Positions 9,663 to 61,947 of a stretch of DNA of 64,000 nt are shown one piece after another. The stretch lies in the NCBI GenBank assembly GCA_965248965.1, contig CBDFKZ010000003.1, positions 501,306-565,305 of the forward strand, read 5' to 3'. This DNA is from Sphingomonas sp. (GTDB taxonomy: Bacteria > Pseudomonadota > Alphaproteobacteria > Sphingomonadales > Sphingomonadaceae). The position numbers and the translations under genes are program-made. Every line of letters starts with the position of its first letter. The stretch's first letter is position 1. Under the pieces are notes generated by a model. It worked only from the letters and a program-made list of their open reading frames with translations. It was not told the DNA's origin and did no database searches.

Positions 9663-9748
9663 TGGTGGACAGGGTTGGATTCGAACCAACGTACCCTTGC
9701 GAGAGCAGATTTACAGTCTGCCGCCTTTAACCACTCGGCCACCTGTCC
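9663..9748 (-). tRNA. tRNA-Tyr (GUA)
   Basis: Reverse complement GGACAGG...GACTGTAAATC...long variable arm...GGTTCGAATCC...CCTGTCC-A-CCA. Confidence 0.97.
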
Positions 9749-29579: not shown

Positions 29580-30440
29580 TTATCCAGATAACGGCATTCG
29601 CCGCGGCATGGGAAGTGCCGATGCCCGACAAACGATGTCGACCCCGGCGATGGCTCAGGCGACATGCGCTGCGCCCGGGAAAAACATCGCGGCTGATTAT
29701 CGGATCGCCACGCACGCCAAGACCCTATGATCGCCGGCGGAAAGGTGGTAGCGTTCTCAACAAGGGCCGCGTTCGATAAACCAGATTTGGAGCAGAGGGC
29801 GCCCGCCGGCATCAGCCCGGCCTGTCGCACCCTGTCGGAAGTCTGTCTGCAGGGGGCCCGAAGCATGTGCGCACCTATTTCTGTCGCGTCGGTCGGTATG
29901 ACGTCCTGTCTCGAGCGCAGCGTTGCAGGCGCTGGAATTCCGGGACGTCTCGAACGGACTGCGTCTTCGCGGCGCCGGCCCAAGGCGCCCCAATGTTAAG
30001 GCGTTTTTGCGGTGATGCCGACGCAGCTGCGCAGGAATTCGCGTCACGCATGCCGATGCGCGTCGATCATGCTATATATATAGGAGAAACCGTGACGGTC
30101 CCGAAGCTTGGCCGGTACGGCTTAACATAGGTAATTTCCGAAGCTTTTCGCTGCCACCAAGACCGTCTATTCCCAATGATGGACCTAATGTGGCAGGGCA
30201 ATAAAAAGGGGCCGACTTCGTAGTAAAATCCGTTGTCAATCGCGAGTTTAGTCTGAATCGAAACTTGTTACATCGTATTCGGATCTCAACTCATACCGTT
30301 ATACGTATTTATAGATTTACCTCTGTTCCGCCCGTGTTGTATAGTCGATGTAGCAATTGACGAACATGATACATGACTGGCTCGGTAAGCGGGATTAATC
30401 TGTTGAAGAACTTAGGGAATTCAACTTGTTGTGCAGTCAG

Positions 30441-31106
30441 TTGACCAATTGCGAGAAGCCGGTTCAGGTATCGCGAAGCGTCTATGTGATCGACGATAAC
30501 GCTGACGTCCGCAAATCCTTGCACTTCCTGTTATCCGTATCGTCGATCACGGCGTGGCCCTTCGCTACCGCGACCGATTTCATCGAACAGCTTCCCGAGC
30601 TGGTGCCCGGACCCATTCTTCTCGACGTCCGCATGCCGCAGATCGATGGCCTCGAGATGCTGTCGATGCTCAAGGAGCGCGCGGTCGACTGGCCCGTCAT
30701 CGTGATGACGGCGCACAGCGATGTGCGCATTGCCGTCGGTGCGATGAAGCTGGGCGCGATCGACTTTCTCGAGAAGCCGTTCAAGACAGAACTGCTCGAA
30801 AAAGTGCTCGACCAGGCGTTCTCGCTCATCGATCAGGCAGACGGCACGCTCCGCCTGCGCGCAGAGGCGCGCGAGCGTTTTGACCGGCTGTCGCGGCGCG
30901 AACGCGAGGTCATGGCCAGCCTTGCCGATGGTGCGCCGAACAAGGTGGCCGCGCGCGAGCTGGGTCTCAGCGCCCGCACGGTCGAGATGCACCGGGCAAA
31001 TGCGCTGGGCAAGCTGGGCCTGAAGAGCATCGCCGAAGTCGTGAAGCTGGAAGTCGCGGCCGGTTTTCTCGACCGCTCCCTCAGATCGCAGAACAGCCTC
31101 AACTAG
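30441..31106 (+). CDS. FixJ/NarL-like response regulator
   Basis: VIDD, LLDVRMP phospho-Asp, FLEKPF, LSRRERE...NKVAA...TVEMHR LuxR HTH. Confidence 0.93.
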   Translation: MTNCEKPVQVSRSVYVIDDNADVRKSLHFLLSVSSITAWPFATATDFIEQLPELVPGPILLDVRMPQIDGLEMLSMLKERAVDWPVIVMTAHSDVRIAVGAMKLGAIDFLEKPFKTELLEKVLDQAFSLIDQADGTLRLRAEARERFDRLSRREREVMASLADGAPNKVAARELGLSARTVEMHRANALGKLGLKSIAEVVKLEVAAGFLDRSLRSQNSLN

Positions 31107-33068: not shown

Positions 33069-34169
33069 TCAATGCCGGGCGGCGCTGCCCGGCGCGTTTC
33101 CGCCCAGCCGCTTCATGGCGGGAACCGGAGCGGGATTGGGGGCAATCGAGTCGATATCGACAAGCGAGGGATGCGACGCGGCCACCACATTGGCAGGTAT
33201 GGCAATGACGCGCGACAGCGTGTTGTGCGGCTGGCCTTCGGCAGGCAGCATCGACACCTTGGGCTGCTCGCCGGACACCTTGGGCGCACGCGTGCGGGCC
33301 GGCTTTGCGTAGCTTTTGCCGTATTCGGCCATTACGGCGAACTGCGGCTCGCTGGCGGCCAGTTCGGCGATCGACCGCGAGGCGCGCTTGGTGATCTGGC
33401 GGACACGTTCCTTCGTGACTCCGGTCGTCTCGCCAAGCTGGTCAAGCGTGTCGGCCTGGAAGACCCGACGCTCGACGATTTCGCGATCGCGATCCAGCTT
33501 TTGCTCGAGCTTTTCGAGTTCTTCGGGGCAGATGCCGTGCGTCCGCGTGCGGCGGAGCAGGGCGGCCGCGCGTTCGACCGGATCGGTCACCGACAGGCGT
33601 TTTGCCCGCGGCCGCTTGCGCAGCTGGTCAAGCGCGGCGGCGCGCTGATGATTGATATAGCCGTCCACGAGCGACCGGGTCGCCGCATGGGCAAGATAGT
33701 CGGACGCAGCGGATTCGGTGCGCGCCAGCGCGCATTCGTCCTCGATGATGGACTCGAGCGTGGATTCCTCGCCGTCGGCGCCCGACGTGACCGAGTGAAG
33801 GGAGACCGTCGTCGCCGCGACCTTCTTTGCCGAGGGACGCTGGTCGGTCATGACCCGGAAGCGAAGCGACTGAAGCTCGCCGCGGATCTGCCAGTTGACG
33901 AAGGTCGTGAAGAGTGCCTTTTCGGGGTCGTAACCCTGGATCGCCCGGTGCACGGCGATGGCGCAGCACTGCTCGGCGTCTTCCCAATGGGCCGTCAGGC
34001 CGTACTGGCGGATGAAATGGCGGATGCGCGGTGCGATCAGCTTGAGGATCGAGGCGAACGCCCGGTCCACGGCGGCACGCTGCCGCGCGCTGGACACGTC
34101 GTCACCCTTCGGCATGCTCTCGATGACTGCCGCAACGGCCGCCTCCAGCGCAATCGTGGTCTTTGACAT
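33069..34169 (-). CDS. Divergent sigma70-family RNA polymerase sigma factor
   Basis: Region 2 EDAEQ...VHRAIQGYDPEK...FTTFVNWQIRGE; region 3.2 VSLHS...STLESIIED; region 4.2 TLDQLGETTGVTKERVRQI. Confidence 0.85.
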   Translation of the reverse strand: MSKTTIALEAAVAAVIESMPKGDDVSSARQRAAVDRAFASILKLIAPRIRHFIRQYGLTAHWEDAEQCCAIAVHRAIQGYDPEKALFTTFVNWQIRGELQSLRFRVMTDQRPSAKKVAATTVSLHSVTSGADGEESTLESIIEDECALARTESAASDYLAHAATRSLVDGYINHQRAAALDQLRKRPRAKRLSVTDPVERAAALLRRTRTHGICPEELEKLEQKLDRDREIVERRVFQADTLDQLGETTGVTKERVRQITKRASRSIAELAASEPQFAVMAEYGKSYAKPARTRAPKVSGEQPKVSMLPAEGQPHNTLSRVIAIPANVVAASHPSLVDIDSIAPNPAPVPAMKRLGGNAPGSAARH

Positions 34170-34338
34170 GGTTAACCCCCAGAAAAGAAAAGCAGGTTGG
34201 CCCCGCGCCAACCGTCGCCCTCACCACGTCTTTCTGGCATCGGAGAGTTAATAGGAGTGTTATCATCCTATACGAAAATATACGTAACCATCCTATAAAA
34301 GCATGGTGCTGAGGATGTTTAGCGGCGAGTGGACCCGG

Positions 34339-37074: not shown

Positions 37075-37479
37075 TCAGGCAGCCTGGGGAACGGCGCGTT
37101 CAAGCGCCGTCGTCTCATAGTCGATCAGCACGCGGCAGTCGGCGAGGGCGCGATAATAATTGCCCGTTGCCACCTTGTGGGCGAACCGCGCGCACAAGGC
37201 CTTGGCCTCGAGGGATTCGAGCGCGCCGAGAAGGTCGCTCAGATACTGAATGATCGCATCCTGATGCTTGGTCTGCGACTTGGGGTCGATGTAGGCCATC
37301 ATGCAGGAAAAATAGAGCCGCCGCGCCGGTGTCACGGCGTCTTCCGCGGACATGACCTCGCGACCGCGCAGAAGAGAGACATTGTTCTCCACGATCAGGT
37401 CGGTGCGGCCGACCGCGCGCATCACGGCGCCGTTCACGATCATCTTCTCACCGTCGCGCAGGGAAATACGAAGCGTCAT
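37075..37479 (-). CDS. flbT: Flagellin translational regulator FlbT
   Basis: MTLRISLRDGEKMIVNGAV...TPARRLYF...YYRAL. Confidence 0.92.
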   Translation of the reverse strand: MTLRISLRDGEKMIVNGAVMRAVGRTDLIVENNVSLLRGREVMSAEDAVTPARRLYFSCMMAYIDPKSQTKHQDAIIQYLSDLLGALESLEAKALCARFAHKVATGNYYRALADCRVLIDYETTALERAVPQAA

Positions 37480-44144: not shown

Positions 44145-44220
44145 GGATGTCCCTTCTGTGCTTGATATCCTCTATTATAGGGGGAGCGAGGCGCGCGCGT
44201 GCGCCCCGCCCGGAGTTCCT

Positions 44221-45596: not shown

Positions 45597-46609
45597 CGCT
45601 TGGTCTCCTTGAACATGTCGGTCACGAGCCGGACCGCGACATTATTGCTGCGCTGGCCGATTTGCGCCCGCCCGAGCGCTATGCCCCCGCACTGGACCTC
45701 GAGAGCGTCGTCGGGCGCGGTGTGAAGCGCGATCGTCTGGCCGACCTTGAACGCGCCGACCTCTTCGAGCCGCAACGTCCGTTCGCCCAGGACCACGTCG
45801 ATCGAAACATCCGTCTTCAACAGTTCGGAGGCCATGTGTGCCTCCCAAATGTTGCCGCGGCCGACCTTGCGGCCCATGAAACGCTGCAGCAGCTTTTCAC
45901 GGACCGGCTCCATCGTCGCATAGGGTAGCAGGATGCTGAACCGGCCACCGCGGCCTTCCATGTCGACGCGGAAGGTTGCGACGGCGGCGATATTGGTGGG
46001 CTCGGCGATCGCGGCAAAGCGCGGGCTGGTCTCCACGCGCTCGAGCTGCATGTTGATCGACGCAATCGGTTCGAAAGCTGCGGCCAGATCCGCGAGGGCG
46101 AGCTGCAGCATCTGGGAAACCAGCGTCGTCTCGATGGTCGTGAAGGCCCGTCCTTCGATCCGCCGCGTATTGCCGCCCCGCCGGCCGCCGAGCAGCGCGT
46201 CGACGACGGCGTAGATCAGGCTCGATTCGACCGTAACGATCCCGTAATTGTCCCACTCCGGGACATTGAAGACGCCGATCATGGCCGGCATCTCGAGGCG
46301 GCTCATGAAATCGCCGAAGCGGATCGACGTCAGTTCGTCGAGGCTGACGTCGATGGCGTCGGTCGTCAGGTTGCGCATGCTCGAGGCGAAGCTGCGCACC
46401 ATGTGCTCGCACACGACCTCGAGCATCGGCAGGCGCTCGTGACTGATGATGTTGGACTCGATGACGGCCTTGAGGCCGCTCTTGCGCGCGACCGGTGCGG
46501 TGTCGCCGAACAAGGCGTCGATGCCAGCCTGGTCGAAGGCGTCGTCCTCTGCCAGGCCGTCGGCGATCGGCGGGTCGGGCAGGTCGAAGTCGATGGCTTC
46601 CTCGCTCAT
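45593..46609 (-). CDS. fliM: Flagellar motor switch protein FliM
   Basis: FDQAGIDALF CheY-binding-like peptide, ERLPMLE, RAFTTIE, C-terminal SPOA domain. Confidence 0.95.
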   Translation of the reverse strand: MSEEAIDFDLPDPPIADGLAEDDAFDQAGIDALFGDTAPVARKSGLKAVIESNIISHERLPMLEVVCEHMVRSFASSMRNLTTDAIDVSLDELTSIRFGDFMSRLEMPAMIGVFNVPEWDNYGIVTVESSLIYAVVDALLGGRRGGNTRRIEGRAFTTIETTLVSQMLQLALADLAAAFEPIASINMQLERVETSPRFAAIAEPTNIAAVATFRVDMEGRGGRFSILLPYATMEPVREKLLQRFMGRKVGRGNIWEAHMASELLKTDVSIDVVLGERTLRLEEVGAFKVGQTIALHTAPDDALEVQCGGIALGRAQIGQRSNNVAVRLVTDMFKETKR

Positions 46610-47115
46610 TGCTGGATCAGGTCCTGAATGAGTATGTCCTTGATCTGGTTCGGCCCTACCGCGCCCACCGCGCGCACCAGCATTTCTTCCTTGATCCGGA
46701 AGACCGCCGCAGAACCGCTCAGATCCTCGGGGCGCAGTTCGCGCAGGAAGGGCTGGAACGCATCGACGATCAGGGGAAGCTTCTTTTTGAGATCGTCCGC
46801 CTTGCTCGCGGTGACGGGTACCAGCGTGAAGCGGATCTTGAGAAAGCGGGCCGAGCCGTCCGCCTCGCGCAGGTTGACCACCATCGGCGGCGCCTCGATG
46901 TACCTGACCTCGCCCTCGTCATGGGCTTCGGACGCGACCTCGTCGGTCGGCTCGCTGCGGCCGAGCAACATATAGGCAGCTCCGCCACCGACCAGGAGCA
47001 GGGCGGCAACGGCGGCGGCGATAATGACCAACTTCTTGCTAAAACGCGGTTTTTTGGGTGCAGACGTACCTTCGGGTACCTCTTCTGCGACGATTTCCGG
47101 CACGGCTTCTGACAA
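46606..47115 (-). CDS. fliL: Flagellar basal-body protein FliL
   Basis: N-terminal TM helix, MVVNL, FLRELRPEDLSGSAAVFRIKEEM. Confidence 0.93.
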   Translation of the reverse strand: MSEAVPEIVAEEVPEGTSAPKKPRFSKKLVIIAAAVAALLLVGGGAAYMLLGRSEPTDEVASEAHDEGEVRYIEAPPMVVNLREADGSARFLKIRFTLVPVTASKADDLKKKLPLIVDAFQPFLRELRPEDLSGSAAVFRIKEEMLVRAVGAVGPNQIKDILIQDLIQQ

Positions 47116-47254
47116 CGGCTTGCCTTTCGTTCCACGGACGCAGGAGAAATTGTTCCCGCCGCCCCAATTCATCTCGTTCCGTCTATTATAGGAGAGGTAC
47201 CGGGCAAATTCTGCCTAGTGCCATCGGAACGAAGATTTATCTGGAGCGAACGAG

Positions 47255-50125: not shown

Positions 50126-50267
50126 CTTAAATAAAACTGGGTGTTGATTTTGGTTAGCCTGTAATCCTTCCCACAATGAAGGGCGAGCCGGAAGACTTCG
50201 GTGCGTCGCGGGCCAGCGCTTCTGGCCCAGGTCGCAGAAGCGACCTTTCATCCAGAAGGACAAGATC

Positions 50268-51156: not shown

Positions 51157-51260
51157 CTTCTGCAGGGGGGCCGGGACGACGTGTATCGTCTCGGCCCTTC
51201 GCGTTTCCGCCGCCGGAATTCGTCCGGCGGCTCAGTTTGCTTTAGGTGGAGGAATCCGCT

Positions 51261-51665
51261 GTGTTTCCAAGAATTCGCGAGATCACGGATGCTTTCGGTG
51301 CGTGTCTGCGGGTCAGCGTCGATGCGCACCCGACCGGGGCGCTGGTGGTTTTCGACCGGCCCGACCGCATGCTCTATCCGACGGCCGTGCTCGATGGATA
51401 TGGCGCCGAGGTGCTGTGTGGCTATATCATGGCGGCCCGCCTGGCCCTGCCCAACGATCTGCCCGAAGAGGTCGTCGACGGGCCGTTCGCGTCGCGCTTC
51501 GGCCTTGAGCAAGGGGATCGCACGGCGCTGGTCGTCAAGCAGTCGGGCGCTCGCCATGATTTCGAGATCCCCGCGCCGTTCTGGGACCGGCTGTACGCCG
51601 AATTGTGCGTCGTCATCGCGCATTCGCGCGAGATCGGGCGCCGGTCGGCGACGCGGCTTCAATGA
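51261..51665 (+). CDS. Hypothetical protein
   Basis: GGAGGA RBS before GTG; globular-looking 134 aa; no family recognised. Confidence 0.75.
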   Translation: MFPRIREITDAFGACLRVSVDAHPTGALVVFDRPDRMLYPTAVLDGYGAEVLCGYIMAARLALPNDLPEEVVDGPFASRFGLEQGDRTALVVKQSGARHDFEIPAPFWDRLYAELCVVIAHSREIGRRSATRLQ

Positions 51666-51779
51666 CGTAGCAATACCTAGGCATTTTTCCTGAATAGTCG
51701 GCGCGCTCGGTCGCGCCCATCCGATTGGGGCCGGCGCATCTCGATGCGTCGGCTTGTCGCTTAACTCGCGGGGGGTCGC

Positions 51780-52226
51780 ATGAAACCGGAATATGTCGTC
51801 CTTGGCCAAGACCGGGCTGCTTATGCAAACACGCAGCCGCAGCCCGAATTTCGGGTCAGCCTGACGCTTGCCATTTCGGACACGCGCGCCCTCTGGACGG
51901 CGGCCGCGGCTCGCCTGCTTGCCGTGCCGGGCACCACGCTGGAAGAGGTGATCGAGGTTATCGGACCGAGTGAAGATCCCTCGCCGCATGACTGCCTTGC
52001 CGCGCTGACCAAGCCCGACGTCTTGCCCGGCTGTGTACTTGCCGATTTCTGGATCGACGGCTTGCCCGAGACCAAGGCGCGCCATGAGCCTGTCCGCAGC
52101 GCCGTGGAGCGCCGCGTGATCGCGGCCGAGCGTCCCGTAAAATCGATTTCTGCGCGAACAGAGGTTGCGCCCGGCTTGCGCATTTCCCTTTCGGACGGGT
52201 CCCCGCATCAACGACAGGTAAACTGA
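51780..52226 (+). CDS. Hypothetical protein
   Basis: 148 aa ORF with a G-rich RBS-like stretch, followed by a terminator. Confidence 0.7.
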   Translation: MKPEYVVLGQDRAAYANTQPQPEFRVSLTLAISDTRALWTAAAARLLAVPGTTLEEVIEVIGPSEDPSPHDCLAALTKPDVLPGCVLADFWIDGLPETKARHEPVRSAVERRVIAAERPVKSISARTEVAPGLRISLSDGSPHQRQVN

Positions 52227-52264
52227 CAGATCGAAGTTTCTTCGGGATCGCATTCACAAGAAAC

Positions 52265-52297
52265 AAAAAAAACAGGCCGGAAACGGCCTGTTTTTTT
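52265..52297. terminator. Bidirectional intrinsic terminator
   Basis: A8-CAGGCC-GGAAAC-GGCCTG-T7. Confidence 0.92.
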
Positions 52298-52380
52298 ATG
52301 TCGGGATAGGGACGGCGGGGAAGGTGGGAACCCGGAAGCAGTGGGGGCGGGGTGGGGGTGGGGGATGCTTCCGGGCTCCT
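52265..52380 (-). ncRNA. Candidate small RNA (or flgD 3' UTR element) with a C-rich loop
   Basis: TATAAT at 52386-52391 (minus strand); 14-bp stem starting at the predicted +1 with a 25-nt C-rich loop; U8 terminator. Confidence 0.55.
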
Positions 52381-52447
52381 GTTTCATTATAGAAAGGCGT
52401 CTTGCGTTGCGGCCTTTCTGCAAAAAAACTTTCTTACTTTCAGATGC

Positions 52448-53137
52448 TTACGCTGCAGAAGCGAGGCCGATCAGCGTGTTGATCGGCAATTGGGCACCGT
52501 TTACGTCGAGCGAAATTCCGCCGTTTTCCGCGCTGATGCCCCCGACCGTGCCGACGCTGTGGATCGTTACCGGCACGGTCGCCCCAGCGGCATTCCGAGC
52601 GGTCATCGACAGAGTGTAGGCACCTGCCGGCGCCTTGTCGCCATTGGCGAGCGTGCCGTCCCAGCTGAAGCTGCCCTGGCGACCGCCAAGGTTCACGTCG
52701 CGCGTGTCGACCACGGCGCCCGCGGCGTTGGTGATCTGCATCTTGCCCGAAGCTACGGCGACGTCCGCCGAATAGGTCCAGCTCGCCGGCTTCGCGCCCA
52801 GCCCGGCCACCGCGGAGTTGAATTCGGCGTCCTTGCCGATGAAGCCCGATGCCTGGGCCATGGTCTGGTTCGTCAGGCTGGCAAGAATGTCCTTCAGCGT
52901 CGACGATTGCTGGACGGTCTGTTCGACCTGCGAATATTGCACGAGCTGCTGGGTATATTGCGCGCTGTCCATGGGGCTCAGCGGATCCTGGTTCTGCATC
53001 TGCGTCGTCAGAAGCTTCAGGAACATGTTGAAATCAGCGCCGATTGTGCCCTTCGGCGATGTACTGGCAGTCGCCAGCGACTGCAGGCCGGTGCTCGCCG
53101 AAGCCGGAAGGCTGGCTGAGGGAGAGATGAGTGTCAT
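52448..53137 (-). CDS. flgD: Hook capping protein FlgD
   Basis: FLKLLTTQMQNQDPLSPMD, QYSQVEQ, FSWDG. Confidence 0.96.
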   Translation of the reverse strand: MTLISPSASLPASASTGLQSLATASTSPKGTIGADFNMFLKLLTTQMQNQDPLSPMDSAQYTQQLVQYSQVEQTVQQSSTLKDILASLTNQTMAQASGFIGKDAEFNSAVAGLGAKPASWTYSADVAVASGKMQITNAAGAVVDTRDVNLGGRQGSFSWDGTLANGDKAPAGAYTLSMTARNAAGATVPVTIHSVGTVGGISAENGGISLDVNGAQLPINTLIGLASAA

Positions 53138-56682: not shown

Positions 56683-58023
56683 TCAATGCGCCGGCTCGAC
56701 GGCAATGCCGGCCTCGATGAATGTCCTCAGCTTGTTGCGCATCGTGCGCACCGAGATGCCGAGGATCGTCGAGGCCGTGGTGCGGTTGCCGCCGCAATGT
56801 TCGAGCGTGTGAAGGATCAGGTCGCGTTCGACATCGTCGACGGTGCGACCGACGAGGGACGCGGCCGGATCTCGGCCGATCGTGGGCTTCGATGCCCCCA
56901 GAGGCTTGCCGTCGGCCGCGACGATCGCGCTGCCCTGGATCCGTTCGCCCTGGGCAAGCAGGACGGCGCGATGGATCACGCTTTCGAGCTCGCGGACATT
57001 GCCGGGCCACTCATGGCGGGTGAGCGACTGTATGGCATCGGGCGCGAAGGGACGCGCGGCCAGGCCGTTCGCGGCGGCGAACCGCGCGCCGAAATATTGC
57101 GCGATGGCGATGATATCGTCGCCACGTGTGCGTAGCGGCGGTATCGCTACGCGGACGAGGGACAGGCGCGTAAGCAGGCTGCCGAGGAACTGCCCCTTGG
57201 CGACGAGGGCGTCGAGATCGACGGACGTGCCGGCGATGATGCGCGCGTGCGACATCGGGGCGCCGCCTTCGGCGGACCTCGCTTGCTGCACCTGGAGCAT
57301 CGTCAGCAGGCGCGCCTGGGTGGCGAGCGCCAGCGATCCGATTTCGCGCAAATAGATGGTGCCGTACCGGGCGTCCTCCAGCCCGCCACGGCGCGGCGCG
57401 ACGGCACCGGCGAAATCGCCGGCGCCATGGCCGAACAGTTCGGAGTCGATGATGTCGCTGCTCGTGCTGGCGCAGTCGACGGTCAGGAAGCGTCCGGTCC
57501 TTGCCGATGCGGCGTGCACGGTGCGGGCGAAGATTTCGCGACCGCTGCCGAGCTCCCCGCTGATGATAATGGGTGCGCTCGACGGCGCCATGGCAAGGCC
57601 GAGCGACAGCGCGCGACGCAGTTCCGGGTCGTCGCCGACGAGCCGGGCGCCATGCCGGGCCACCGACAGGATTGCCGCTGCAATGAGATCGGCCTGCGGC
57701 GGCAGCGGGACATAGTCGCGCGCGCCGCCCCGAATGGCGGCAACGGCGCGGTCGGCCGACGCGTCGATACCGCAGGCGATGACCGGGACGGCGATATGTT
57801 CGGCGCGGAGTTGCGCGATGAAGCGCGCAACGTCCTCGGCGACGTCGATCATGACAAGATCGCTGCCCGTGTCGCGCAATTTGCGAAGCGCCGTGCCGGC
57901 GTCGTCCGCCATGACGACATTGGCGCCGGTCTCTCGGGCCATCGCGGCGGCGGTGCGGAATTCGCTGCCGGGCGCGCCGACCAGAAGCATGTGAATGGAT
58001 CCGGTAGCCAGCACCACGCTCAA
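56683..58023 (-). CDS. flbD: FlbD-like regulator with degenerate AAA+ domain
   Basis: Receiver + AAA+ + Fis HTH (ILGISVRTMRNKL), downstream of fliN as in Caulobacter; catalytic motifs altered. Confidence 0.88.
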   Translation of the reverse strand: MSVVLATGSIHMLLVGAPGSEFRTAAAMARETGANVVMADDAGTALRKLRDTGSDLVMIDVAEDVARFIAQLRAEHIAVPVIACGIDASADRAVAAIRGGARDYVPLPPQADLIAAAILSVARHGARLVGDDPELRRALSLGLAMAPSSAPIIISGELGSGREIFARTVHAASARTGRFLTVDCASTSSDIIDSELFGHGAGDFAGAVAPRRGGLEDARYGTIYLREIGSLALATQARLLTMLQVQQARSAEGGAPMSHARIIAGTSVDLDALVAKGQFLGSLLTRLSLVRVAIPPLRTRGDDIIAIAQYFGARFAAANGLAARPFAPDAIQSLTRHEWPGNVRELESVIHRAVLLAQGERIQGSAIVAADGKPLGASKPTIGRDPAASLVGRTVDDVERDLILHTLEHCGGNRTTASTILGISVRTMRNKLRTFIEAGIAVEPAH

Positions 58024-60031: not shown

Positions 60032-60105
60032 CGGGCTGCAAAGCCCGTCAGATCATTATAGGAGGAAGCGGTGGGAAAAATTTGCCGGGTAGGAAATTCT
60101 TGCCG

Positions 60106-61863: not shown

Positions 61864-61947
61864 ATAATGAAGGTTAACGCGTCATCACGGCGGCACATGC
61901 GTCTATTATAGGAAGGAGAAGACGCGCGGAGCTCAAGCGGTGATCTT

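Follow-up and report, generated by a model that had tools for sequence, protein, structure and literature searches.

The window, a 64,000-nucleotide stretch of Sphingomonas DNA, carries a flagellar gene cluster in which fliF, fliN, a gene for an FlbD-like sigma-54 activator, flhA, fliK and flgD form a tightly packed string on the minus strand, with flgD as its last gene. A predicted sRNA gene, counted from its TATAAT box, begins 56 nt past the flgD stop codon and runs towards the convergent orf148. The features of the locus are as follows.

52448–53137, minus strand: flgD, coding for the hook-capping protein (Pfam FlgD, FlgD_ig and FlgD_tudor)
52413–52435, minus strand: A/T-rich stretch AAGAAAGTTTTTTTGCAGAAAGG, about 25–45 nt 5' of the -10 box (read from the sequence)
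52386–52391, minus strand: putative -10 box TATAAT in the context cctttc-TATAAT-gaa, with the predicted +1 at about 52379–52380
52385–52380, minus strand: spacer GAAACA between the TATAAT box and hairpin SL1
52265–52379, minus strand: predicted sRNA of about 115 nt, made up of the 5' hairpin SL1, a CU-rich linker and an intrinsic terminator (sequence, fold and homologues)
52327–52379, minus strand: SL1, with a 14-bp stem that includes one G-U pair (fold and covariation)
52379–52366, minus strand: SL1 5' arm, GGAGCCCGGAAGCA
52341–52365, minus strand: SL1 apical loop, UCCCCCACCCCCACCCCGCCCCCAC, 25 nt with C-tracts C5, C5, C4 and C5; proposed seed or anti-Shine-Dalgarno region
52340–52327, minus strand: SL1 3' arm, UGCUUCCGGGUUCC
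52298–52326, minus strand: single-stranded CU-rich linker, CACCUUCCCCGCCGUCCCUAUCCCGACAU, 29 nt (sequence, fold and unpaired probability)
52265–52297, both strands: bidirectional intrinsic terminator A7-CAGGCCG-UUUC-CGGCCUG-U8, common to the sRNA and the convergent orf148 (terminator scan)
51770–52226, plus strand: convergent orf148 (CDS 51780–52226) with a G6 Shine-Dalgarno sequence at 51770–51775; low-confidence candidate target

An earlier, sequence-only reading of this DNA had placed a TATAAT on the minus strand at 52386–52391; we find it there base for base, and the stem starts 7 nt downstream. That reading also had the stem fully paired on the minus strand only, which is borne out by 14 pairs, the single G-U being an A-C mismatch on the plus strand. 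The C-rich loop, the second C-rich stretch and the U8 terminator of an RNA of about 115 nt all lie, with the same sequences, where it had put them. In the window, the 7-bp GC stem and U8 predict a discrete 3' end, and the sRNA carries an A7 tract as well as the U8 tail.

The element recurs after flgD across Sphingomonadales

FlgD was used to fetch 80 related loci, one genome per species, all of them Sphingomonadales-like, and these were searched with a covariance model of the box and the hairpin at a cut-off of E<1e-3. The model matched 37 of the 80 flgD loci, including loci outside the seed, and each matching locus had one copy, in every case co-directional with flgD and immediately 3' of it. 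The match in the window spans 52319–52391 with 62 bits and is the sole copy in its 64 kb. With the filters off, 8 further divergent loci gave a weak best match at the same place after flgD. Including such weak members and those recognised by eye, about 50 of the 80 loci carry the element, and about 30 of the 80 have no detectable copy directly after flgD.

Carriers were found in Sphingomonas, Sphingobium, Stakelama, Sphingosinicella, Blastomonas, Citromicrobium and other Erythrobacteraceae, and Pacificimonas; the cultured ones include Sphingomonas sp. Root241, S. leidyi, S. kyeonggiensis and Citromicrobium. The layout common to the family is C-TATAAT, 6–7 nt (usually GAAnnA) and a 13–19-bp hairpin with a C-run in its loop. 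The three closest relatives of the window (L001–L003) have the same element with loops of 25–28 nt, and distant relatives keep the layout with other stem sequences. A simple rule that looks for a hairpin followed by a T-run picks out a terminator in 34 of the 51 members, and the RNAs predicted in this way have a median length of about 122 nt. Between flgD and the box, relatives have anywhere between about 40 and 250 nt of unconserved spacer, and the CU-rich linker is variable even among L001–L003.

Fold, covariation and coding potential

The minus-strand RNA folds at -50.4 kcal/mol (z = -9.2), a value matched by 0 of 200 shuffles; the plus-strand fold of the sRNA region is weaker (z = -4.7). 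Double-sided changes occur in all 13 of the modelled SL1 pairs, in an alignment that was fitted to the covariance model and hence favours structure. In the same alignment 84.2% of stem cells are paired, compared with 48–51% when the 3' partner is slid by 1–3 columns, these slid controls being drawn from that very alignment. Shuffled alignments gave 64% paired cells and 45 compensatory cells against the 108 observed, and none of 500 shuffles reached the observed values. G-U or U-G pairs make up about 12% of the SL1 stem cells and would be A-C on the opposite strand, and therefore the structure is that of an RNA transcribed in the same direction as flgD. Given the homology and covariation in relatives, the hairpin is more than a chance fold, and we consider it very probable from these comparisons that the locus is a genuine structured RNA gene.

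The sequence-only reading had named covariation in relatives and an Rfam search as ways to check its proposal; the former was found at every modelled SL1 pair, and the latter matched no family at the element. At the gathering threshold of Rfam 15, the sole match in the window was a tRNA at 9666–9748, and 20 homologous loci gave no match. Relaxing the search of 52150–52500 to E<=10 produced only weak, terminator-driven matches far below threshold. We therefore rejected membership of a curated Rfam 15 family, the alphaproteobacterial sRNA families and sX13 included, because the threshold was not reached. Full-text literature searches returned no description of a flagellar sRNA in Sphingomonadales; in Sphingopyxis granuli TFA a single sRNA, SuhB, has been characterised, and it is a different RNA. 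Judged by sequence, the predicted sRNA belongs to a previously undescribed family, spread across Sphingomonadales at a fixed position of the flagellar cluster and new as a family of a known functional kind.

The same reading had described the RNA as having no ORF, which stands insofar as no ORF keeps its frame, its length or even its presence from one relative to the next; taken literally it does not, since mechanical ORFs exist, one of 71 codons at 52208–52423 (minus strand) with a TTG start and another from the ATG inside TATAATG. A small protein read from either start would account for these ORFs and for the presence of that ATG in 36 of the 51 members. It is nevertheless exceedingly improbable: the ATG is missing in the other 15, the ORFs that begin at TATAATG run from 2 to more than 80 codons and shift frame even among the four closest relatives, they have no Shine-Dalgarno sequence, and the stem substitutions are compensatory.

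The TATAAT box and a putative flagellar promoter class

TATAAT with the following GAA is by far the best-conserved block of the region. The hexamer lies 6–7 nt from the base of the hairpin and reads TATAAT in 40 of the 51 members, with TATGAT, TACAAT, TATATT, TATAAG, TATACT, TATAGT and TATATC as variants. T1 and A2 are invariant and T6 is mostly kept, and the pattern of variation is thus that of a -10 element. A -35 consensus is absent, and a simple sigma-70 scan gives no -35/-10 pair.

Only six copies of TATAAT lie in the 64 kb, where 1.4 would be expected. Of these, five stand on the minus strand immediately 5' of fliL, fliF, fliG, a small ORF and the sRNA, and have the context YCC-TATAAT-(A/G)A in common. 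Those other than the box of the sRNA are the following.

44174–44179, 47185–47190, 60055–60060 and 61905–61910, minus strand: taken together, and not in gene order, the TATAAT boxes of fliL, fliF, fliG and a 72-codon ORF

Similarly, flbT, in a flbT-fliI operon, is preceded by YCC-TATAAG at about 37500, and the flagellin promoter region reads TTCCCAcAATGAA across the order. Three boxes of this kind, those cited being before fliL, flbT and the small ORF, lie in divergent intergenic regions, where a promoter must therefore exist. We read the TATAAT 5' of the sRNA, from its sequence context, as a real -10 box of this promoter class of the flagellar cluster. Because the YCC-TATAAT-RA box is common to fliL, fliF and fliG, the sRNA likely belongs to the flagellar regulon.

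T-rich or TTYCC motifs lie 28–37 nt 5' of the box in other members, and also before flbT and fliF; in other clades the upstream stretch takes the form TAGSGG-N2-3-TTYCC. The A/T-rich stretch upstream of the sRNA could be an UP element or an activator site. A sigma-54 promoter was rejected, since no TGGC-N7-TTGC occurs anywhere in the flagellar cluster, although the FlbD-like activator is encoded there at 56683–58023. A sigma-28 reading of the upstream AAAGTTT...GCCGCAAC was likewise discarded, its spacing and -10 being unconserved in relatives. A 380-aa protein (33069–34211, minus strand) has its only match to sigma-70 region 4, and a LuxR-type response regulator (30426–31106, plus strand) is encoded just outside the flagellar cluster. 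Either could control the unusual YCC-TATAAT promoter class.

A hairpin, CUGACGGGCU-UUGC-AGCCCGGUGUCAG, at 60032–60054 (minus strand) directly follows the fliF TATAAT box, where the fliF mRNA is predicted to begin. Hairpins at a predicted +1 thus recur in the cluster, in the sRNA, fliF and the flagellin leader. The fliL box lies only 12 nt from the annotated ATG of fliL (46606–47172, minus strand), so the fliL mRNA is either nearly leaderless or has its true start further downstream.

Transcripts of the region in public sequence data

The window's own sequence was found only in metagenomic, DNA-like contigs, and soil and aquifer metatranscriptomes yielded nothing for its variant. Pieces of the RNA region of relatives, without flgD, are present at low depth in the RNA-labelled runs X24, X25, X26 and X29, where several of these Logan contigs may be Sphingomonas DNA or kit contamination. 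An identical 208-nt contig, at a depth of about 16, comes from each of two soil metatranscriptomes that have contigs of at most 3–4 kb (X47 and X50); it covers the homologue at locus L067 and gives no 5' end. The contig begins 37 nt 5' of the TATAAT, has no flgD coverage, and ends about 30 nt past the first terminator-like hairpin, with an extra C-loop hairpin included. It supports the existence of a discrete and relatively abundant RNA in this relative.

Since the contig spans the -10 box, at least some of the molecules must have begun upstream of it or come from flgD by read-through. L050, L051, L053, L057, L067 and L077 share a second conserved promoter-like motif, TTCCGTACAATCAC-TTAGCGG, about 55 nt 5' of the box. 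Together, this motif and the contig suggest a longer isoform of the sRNA in the clade with TTCCGTACAATCAC, that of L067. Tandem starts, or read-through followed by processing, are a possible second origin of the RNA.

C-rich loops and candidate targets

In partition-function folding, the SL1 loop of the window has an unpaired probability of 0.97–1.0. Across the 31 members that were folded, the SL1 C-run is unpaired with P of about 0.9–1.0, and C4–C7, CCUCC or CUCCC motifs in general have a predicted unpaired probability of about 0.8–1.0. The conserved unpaired feature of the family is a run of at least four C (or CUCCC) in the SL1 loop, which in other members has 7–20 nt and a single C-run. 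Each member exposes accessible C-rich motifs in one to three loops: most clades show CCUCC, CCUCCUCC or CCCCC in the loop of a second hairpin and/or the terminator, and one clade has the motif on a small extra GCGC-CCCN-GCGC hairpin. The clade of the window is without extra C-loops and has instead an enlarged SL1 loop with four C-tracts. As extra loops elsewhere correspond to a four-tract loop here, the conserved property is that of several anti-Shine-Dalgarno-like seeds per molecule. The RNA strand of the SL1 loop could also form an i-motif.

Among five local genes, orf148 had the best mean loop-duplex energy (-10.3 kcal/mol). A Shine-Dalgarno G-run of at least four (G4–G7) precedes orf148 in 22 of the 37 sRNA-positive loci, and the same run is found at flgD, fliK, orf139 and flagellin in 0–11% of loci; the starts of these four genes have ordinary AGGA-type Shine-Dalgarno sequences that pair poorly. 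The conserved seed would form 5–7 bp with the orf148 Shine-Dalgarno sequence, at about -9.5 kcal/mol. The G-run also occurs at orf148 in 4 of the 12 loci without a detected sRNA, and several non-flagellar G-rich start regions in the window outscore orf148 against the long loop. With a pairing this short, the run present in sRNA-negative loci and better scores elsewhere, orf148 is only a candidate, and from these modelled duplexes we would name any specific target with low confidence.

Other candidates were rejected. The flagellin mRNA has no conserved complementarity in its leader or Shine-Dalgarno sequence (AGAAGGA). An 11-bp match of the linker to fliL at codons 3–6 (GGGGCGGCGGG), and fliH as a target, were treated as fortuitous because the linker is unconserved in L001–L003. 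A full-length RNAduplex ranking of targets was set aside as meaningless, since it ignores intramolecular structure.

A proposed mechanism and its alternatives

Taken together, the comparative evidence supports, at the level of sequence, the model of the sequence-only reading: a non-coding RNA of about 115 nt that would be transcribed independently, expose a C-rich loop and be linked to the flagellar genes. The reading that we favour, and hold to be probable, is that of a trans-acting sRNA gene, probably with its own promoter, whose C-run pairs with G-rich ribosome-binding sites. The sRNA would be transcribed from the TATAAT promoter, with no recognisable -35 and an A/T-rich upstream element, and some transcripts would come from flgD read-through. 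The RNA would start at the base of the long 5' hairpin, hold its C-runs in a fully open loop and end at the intrinsic terminator with a U8 tail. The C-runs would then mimic an anti-Shine-Dalgarno sequence and pair with G-rich ribosome-binding sites, and this pairing would prevent the start of translation, most likely on mRNAs of flagellar or motility genes. By analogy with characterised sRNAs, we propose the anti-Shine-Dalgarno mechanism and the flagellar role with moderate confidence.

The sequence-only reading had itself allowed that the RNA could be only the flgD 3' UTR. It would then lack a promoter of its own and be a folded end of the fliK-flgD mRNA that stabilises or terminates the transcript, or else an sRNA that endonucleolytic cleavage releases from this mRNA, with the AU-rich CUAUAAUGAA as a conceivable RNase E site. 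Its place 56 nt past the flgD stop codon, with no convincing terminator between, would fit such an origin, as would the RNA-seq contigs of relatives that cover the TATAAT and sequence upstream of it; the hook-locus sRNA CJnc230 is processed from an upstream mRNA (PMC11187230). We nonetheless find a 3' UTR rather unlikely: the hexamer varies as a -10 box would, with T1 and A2 kept, identical boxes stand before fliL, flbT and the small ORF in divergent regions where only a promoter makes sense, the distance from flgD to the box drifts between about 40 and 250 nt, and the contig from X47 and X50 stops short of flgD.

A decoy or sponge, in which the C-tracts sequester an RNA-binding protein or some G-rich RNA such as a leader or a second sRNA, would explain why C-motifs are multiplied (one to three loops per relative, four tracts here), along the lines of CsrB-type decoys, and a short conserved seed would suit protein recognition or kissing contacts. 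However, no bacterial poly-C-binding regulator is tied to the locus, the window shows no partner, and the C-rich loops of characterised sRNAs act on mRNAs (PMC3771888), which makes a sponge improbable. The plus strand of the loop, G5-N-G4-N-G5-N-G5 (52341–52365), is a canonical G4 motif, and the element could in principle function as DNA where two flagellar operons converge, as a G-quadruplex or i-motif tract or as a protein-binding palindrome. This is far less probable still, because only the window's clade (L001–L003) has the four-tract loop, about 12% of stem cells are G-U so that the structure works on one strand only, as RNA, and strand-specific covariation and a detectable transcript argue against it.

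A more specific version of the trans-acting sRNA, which we regard as doubtful, would make it a checkpoint. The shared YCC-TATAAT promoter class would drive the sRNA at the end of the fliK-flgD operon, so that it is made with the early or hook-stage genes, and it would mask the poly-G Shine-Dalgarno sequence of orf148, coupling hook assembly to late-gene translation. Here orf148 would be the last gene of a convergent flagellin-orf139-orf148 operon in a Caulobacter-type FlbD/FlbT hierarchy, and the number of seeds would be kept as their location changed (spread over three loops in most clades, gathered in a single four-tract loop in the window). If true, this would place an sRNA layer in the FlbD/FlbT hierarchy, where none is known.

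Comparison with known sRNAs

The nearest functional parallel is sX13 of Xanthomonas, an RNA of three stems with 4C/5C apical loops, in which repression needs the C-loops and G-rich motifs near the start codon of the target; about 5% of genes have such motifs at their ribosome-binding site, the regulon includes motility and chemotaxis genes, and sX13-type RNAs act without Hfq (PMC3771888). Like sX13, whose host is GC-rich, most members of the present family combine stable stems with several C-rich loops per molecule. The two have no sequence or model similarity (Rfam was negative) and differ in host lineage; the 5' end of sX13 is unstructured, whereas here a hairpin starts at the predicted +1, and sX13 has no tie to a flagellar locus, whereas the present sRNA adjoins flgD.

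In genomic position the closest counterpart is CJnc230 (FlmE) of Campylobacter jejuni, which lies directly 3' of the hook-stage gene flgE, regulates components of the flagellar hierarchy, and is reported both to be co-transcribed with and processed from the upstream mRNA and to have its own RpoD promoter 3' of the CDS (PMC11187230). Both RNAs follow a hook-stage gene; ours has a putative promoter box, and read-through is suggested for it by the contig of a relative. Unlike CJnc230, the present RNA follows flgD rather than flgE and is unrelated in sequence; the C-rich multi-loop design is not claimed for CJnc230, and its targets flgM and Cj1387c have no identified counterpart here. The E. coli sRNAs UhpU, MotR, FliX and FlgO come from UTRs of flagellar genes, depend on sigma-28 and feed back on flagellar synthesis (PMC10578931). 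They share no homology with the element described here, whose box is sigma-70-like and whose cluster encodes a Caulobacter-type FlbD-like activator.

C-rich loops are also known from RepG (HPnc5490) of H. pylori, which targets a chemotaxis receptor, and from RNAIII of S. aureus (as cited in PMC3771888). Neither of these, nor any of the alphaproteobacterial RNAs CcsR, AbcR and GsrN, has an Rfam match in the window or in 20 loci, and promoters and contexts differ. All of these RNAs use exposed C/U-rich loops (UCCC, CCUCC, C-tracts) to pair with G-rich leaders or Shine-Dalgarno sequences, and GsrN, which depends on the general-stress sigma factor, has its C-tract in a 5' hairpin. No GGAAC-N16-CGTT box was seen at the sRNA locus.

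To our knowledge, sRNA control of flagellar assembly has been elucidated in just a handful of gamma- and epsilonproteobacteria, and in the literature on alphaproteobacteria with a Caulobacter-type FlbD/FlbT hierarchy we found no flagellar-locus sRNA described. A predicted sRNA that recurs across an order at one point of the flagellar cluster, with clear covariation, would offer a testable entry to such control in alphaproteobacteria. It would also extend the pairing of C-rich loops with G-rich ribosome-binding sites, a design seen repeatedly, to a separate lineage, one in which the multiplicity of seeds appears to be retained while their position within the molecule shifts. The sRNA alignment can serve as the seed of a new Rfam family.

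Neighbouring genes and the flagellin leader

Between flagellin and flgD, about 49 of the 80 loci carry orf139 (51246–51665, plus strand) and orf148. Neither has a Pfam, NCBIfam or PDB sequence match; orf139 is 60–100% identical across Sphingomonas. An assignment of the pair as FlaF and FlbT was rejected, as they have no domain match and the true FlbT is encoded elsewhere, at about 37075–37479.

The flagellin 5' leader (50170–50267, plus strand) has a conserved three-hairpin structure in about 45 loci, which precedes the Shine-Dalgarno sequence AGAAGGA. Compensatory changes are found in 16 of its 22 predicted pairs, loops such as CAGAA are conserved, and it has no Rfam match. This leader may be a site of FlbT/FlaF-type translational control.
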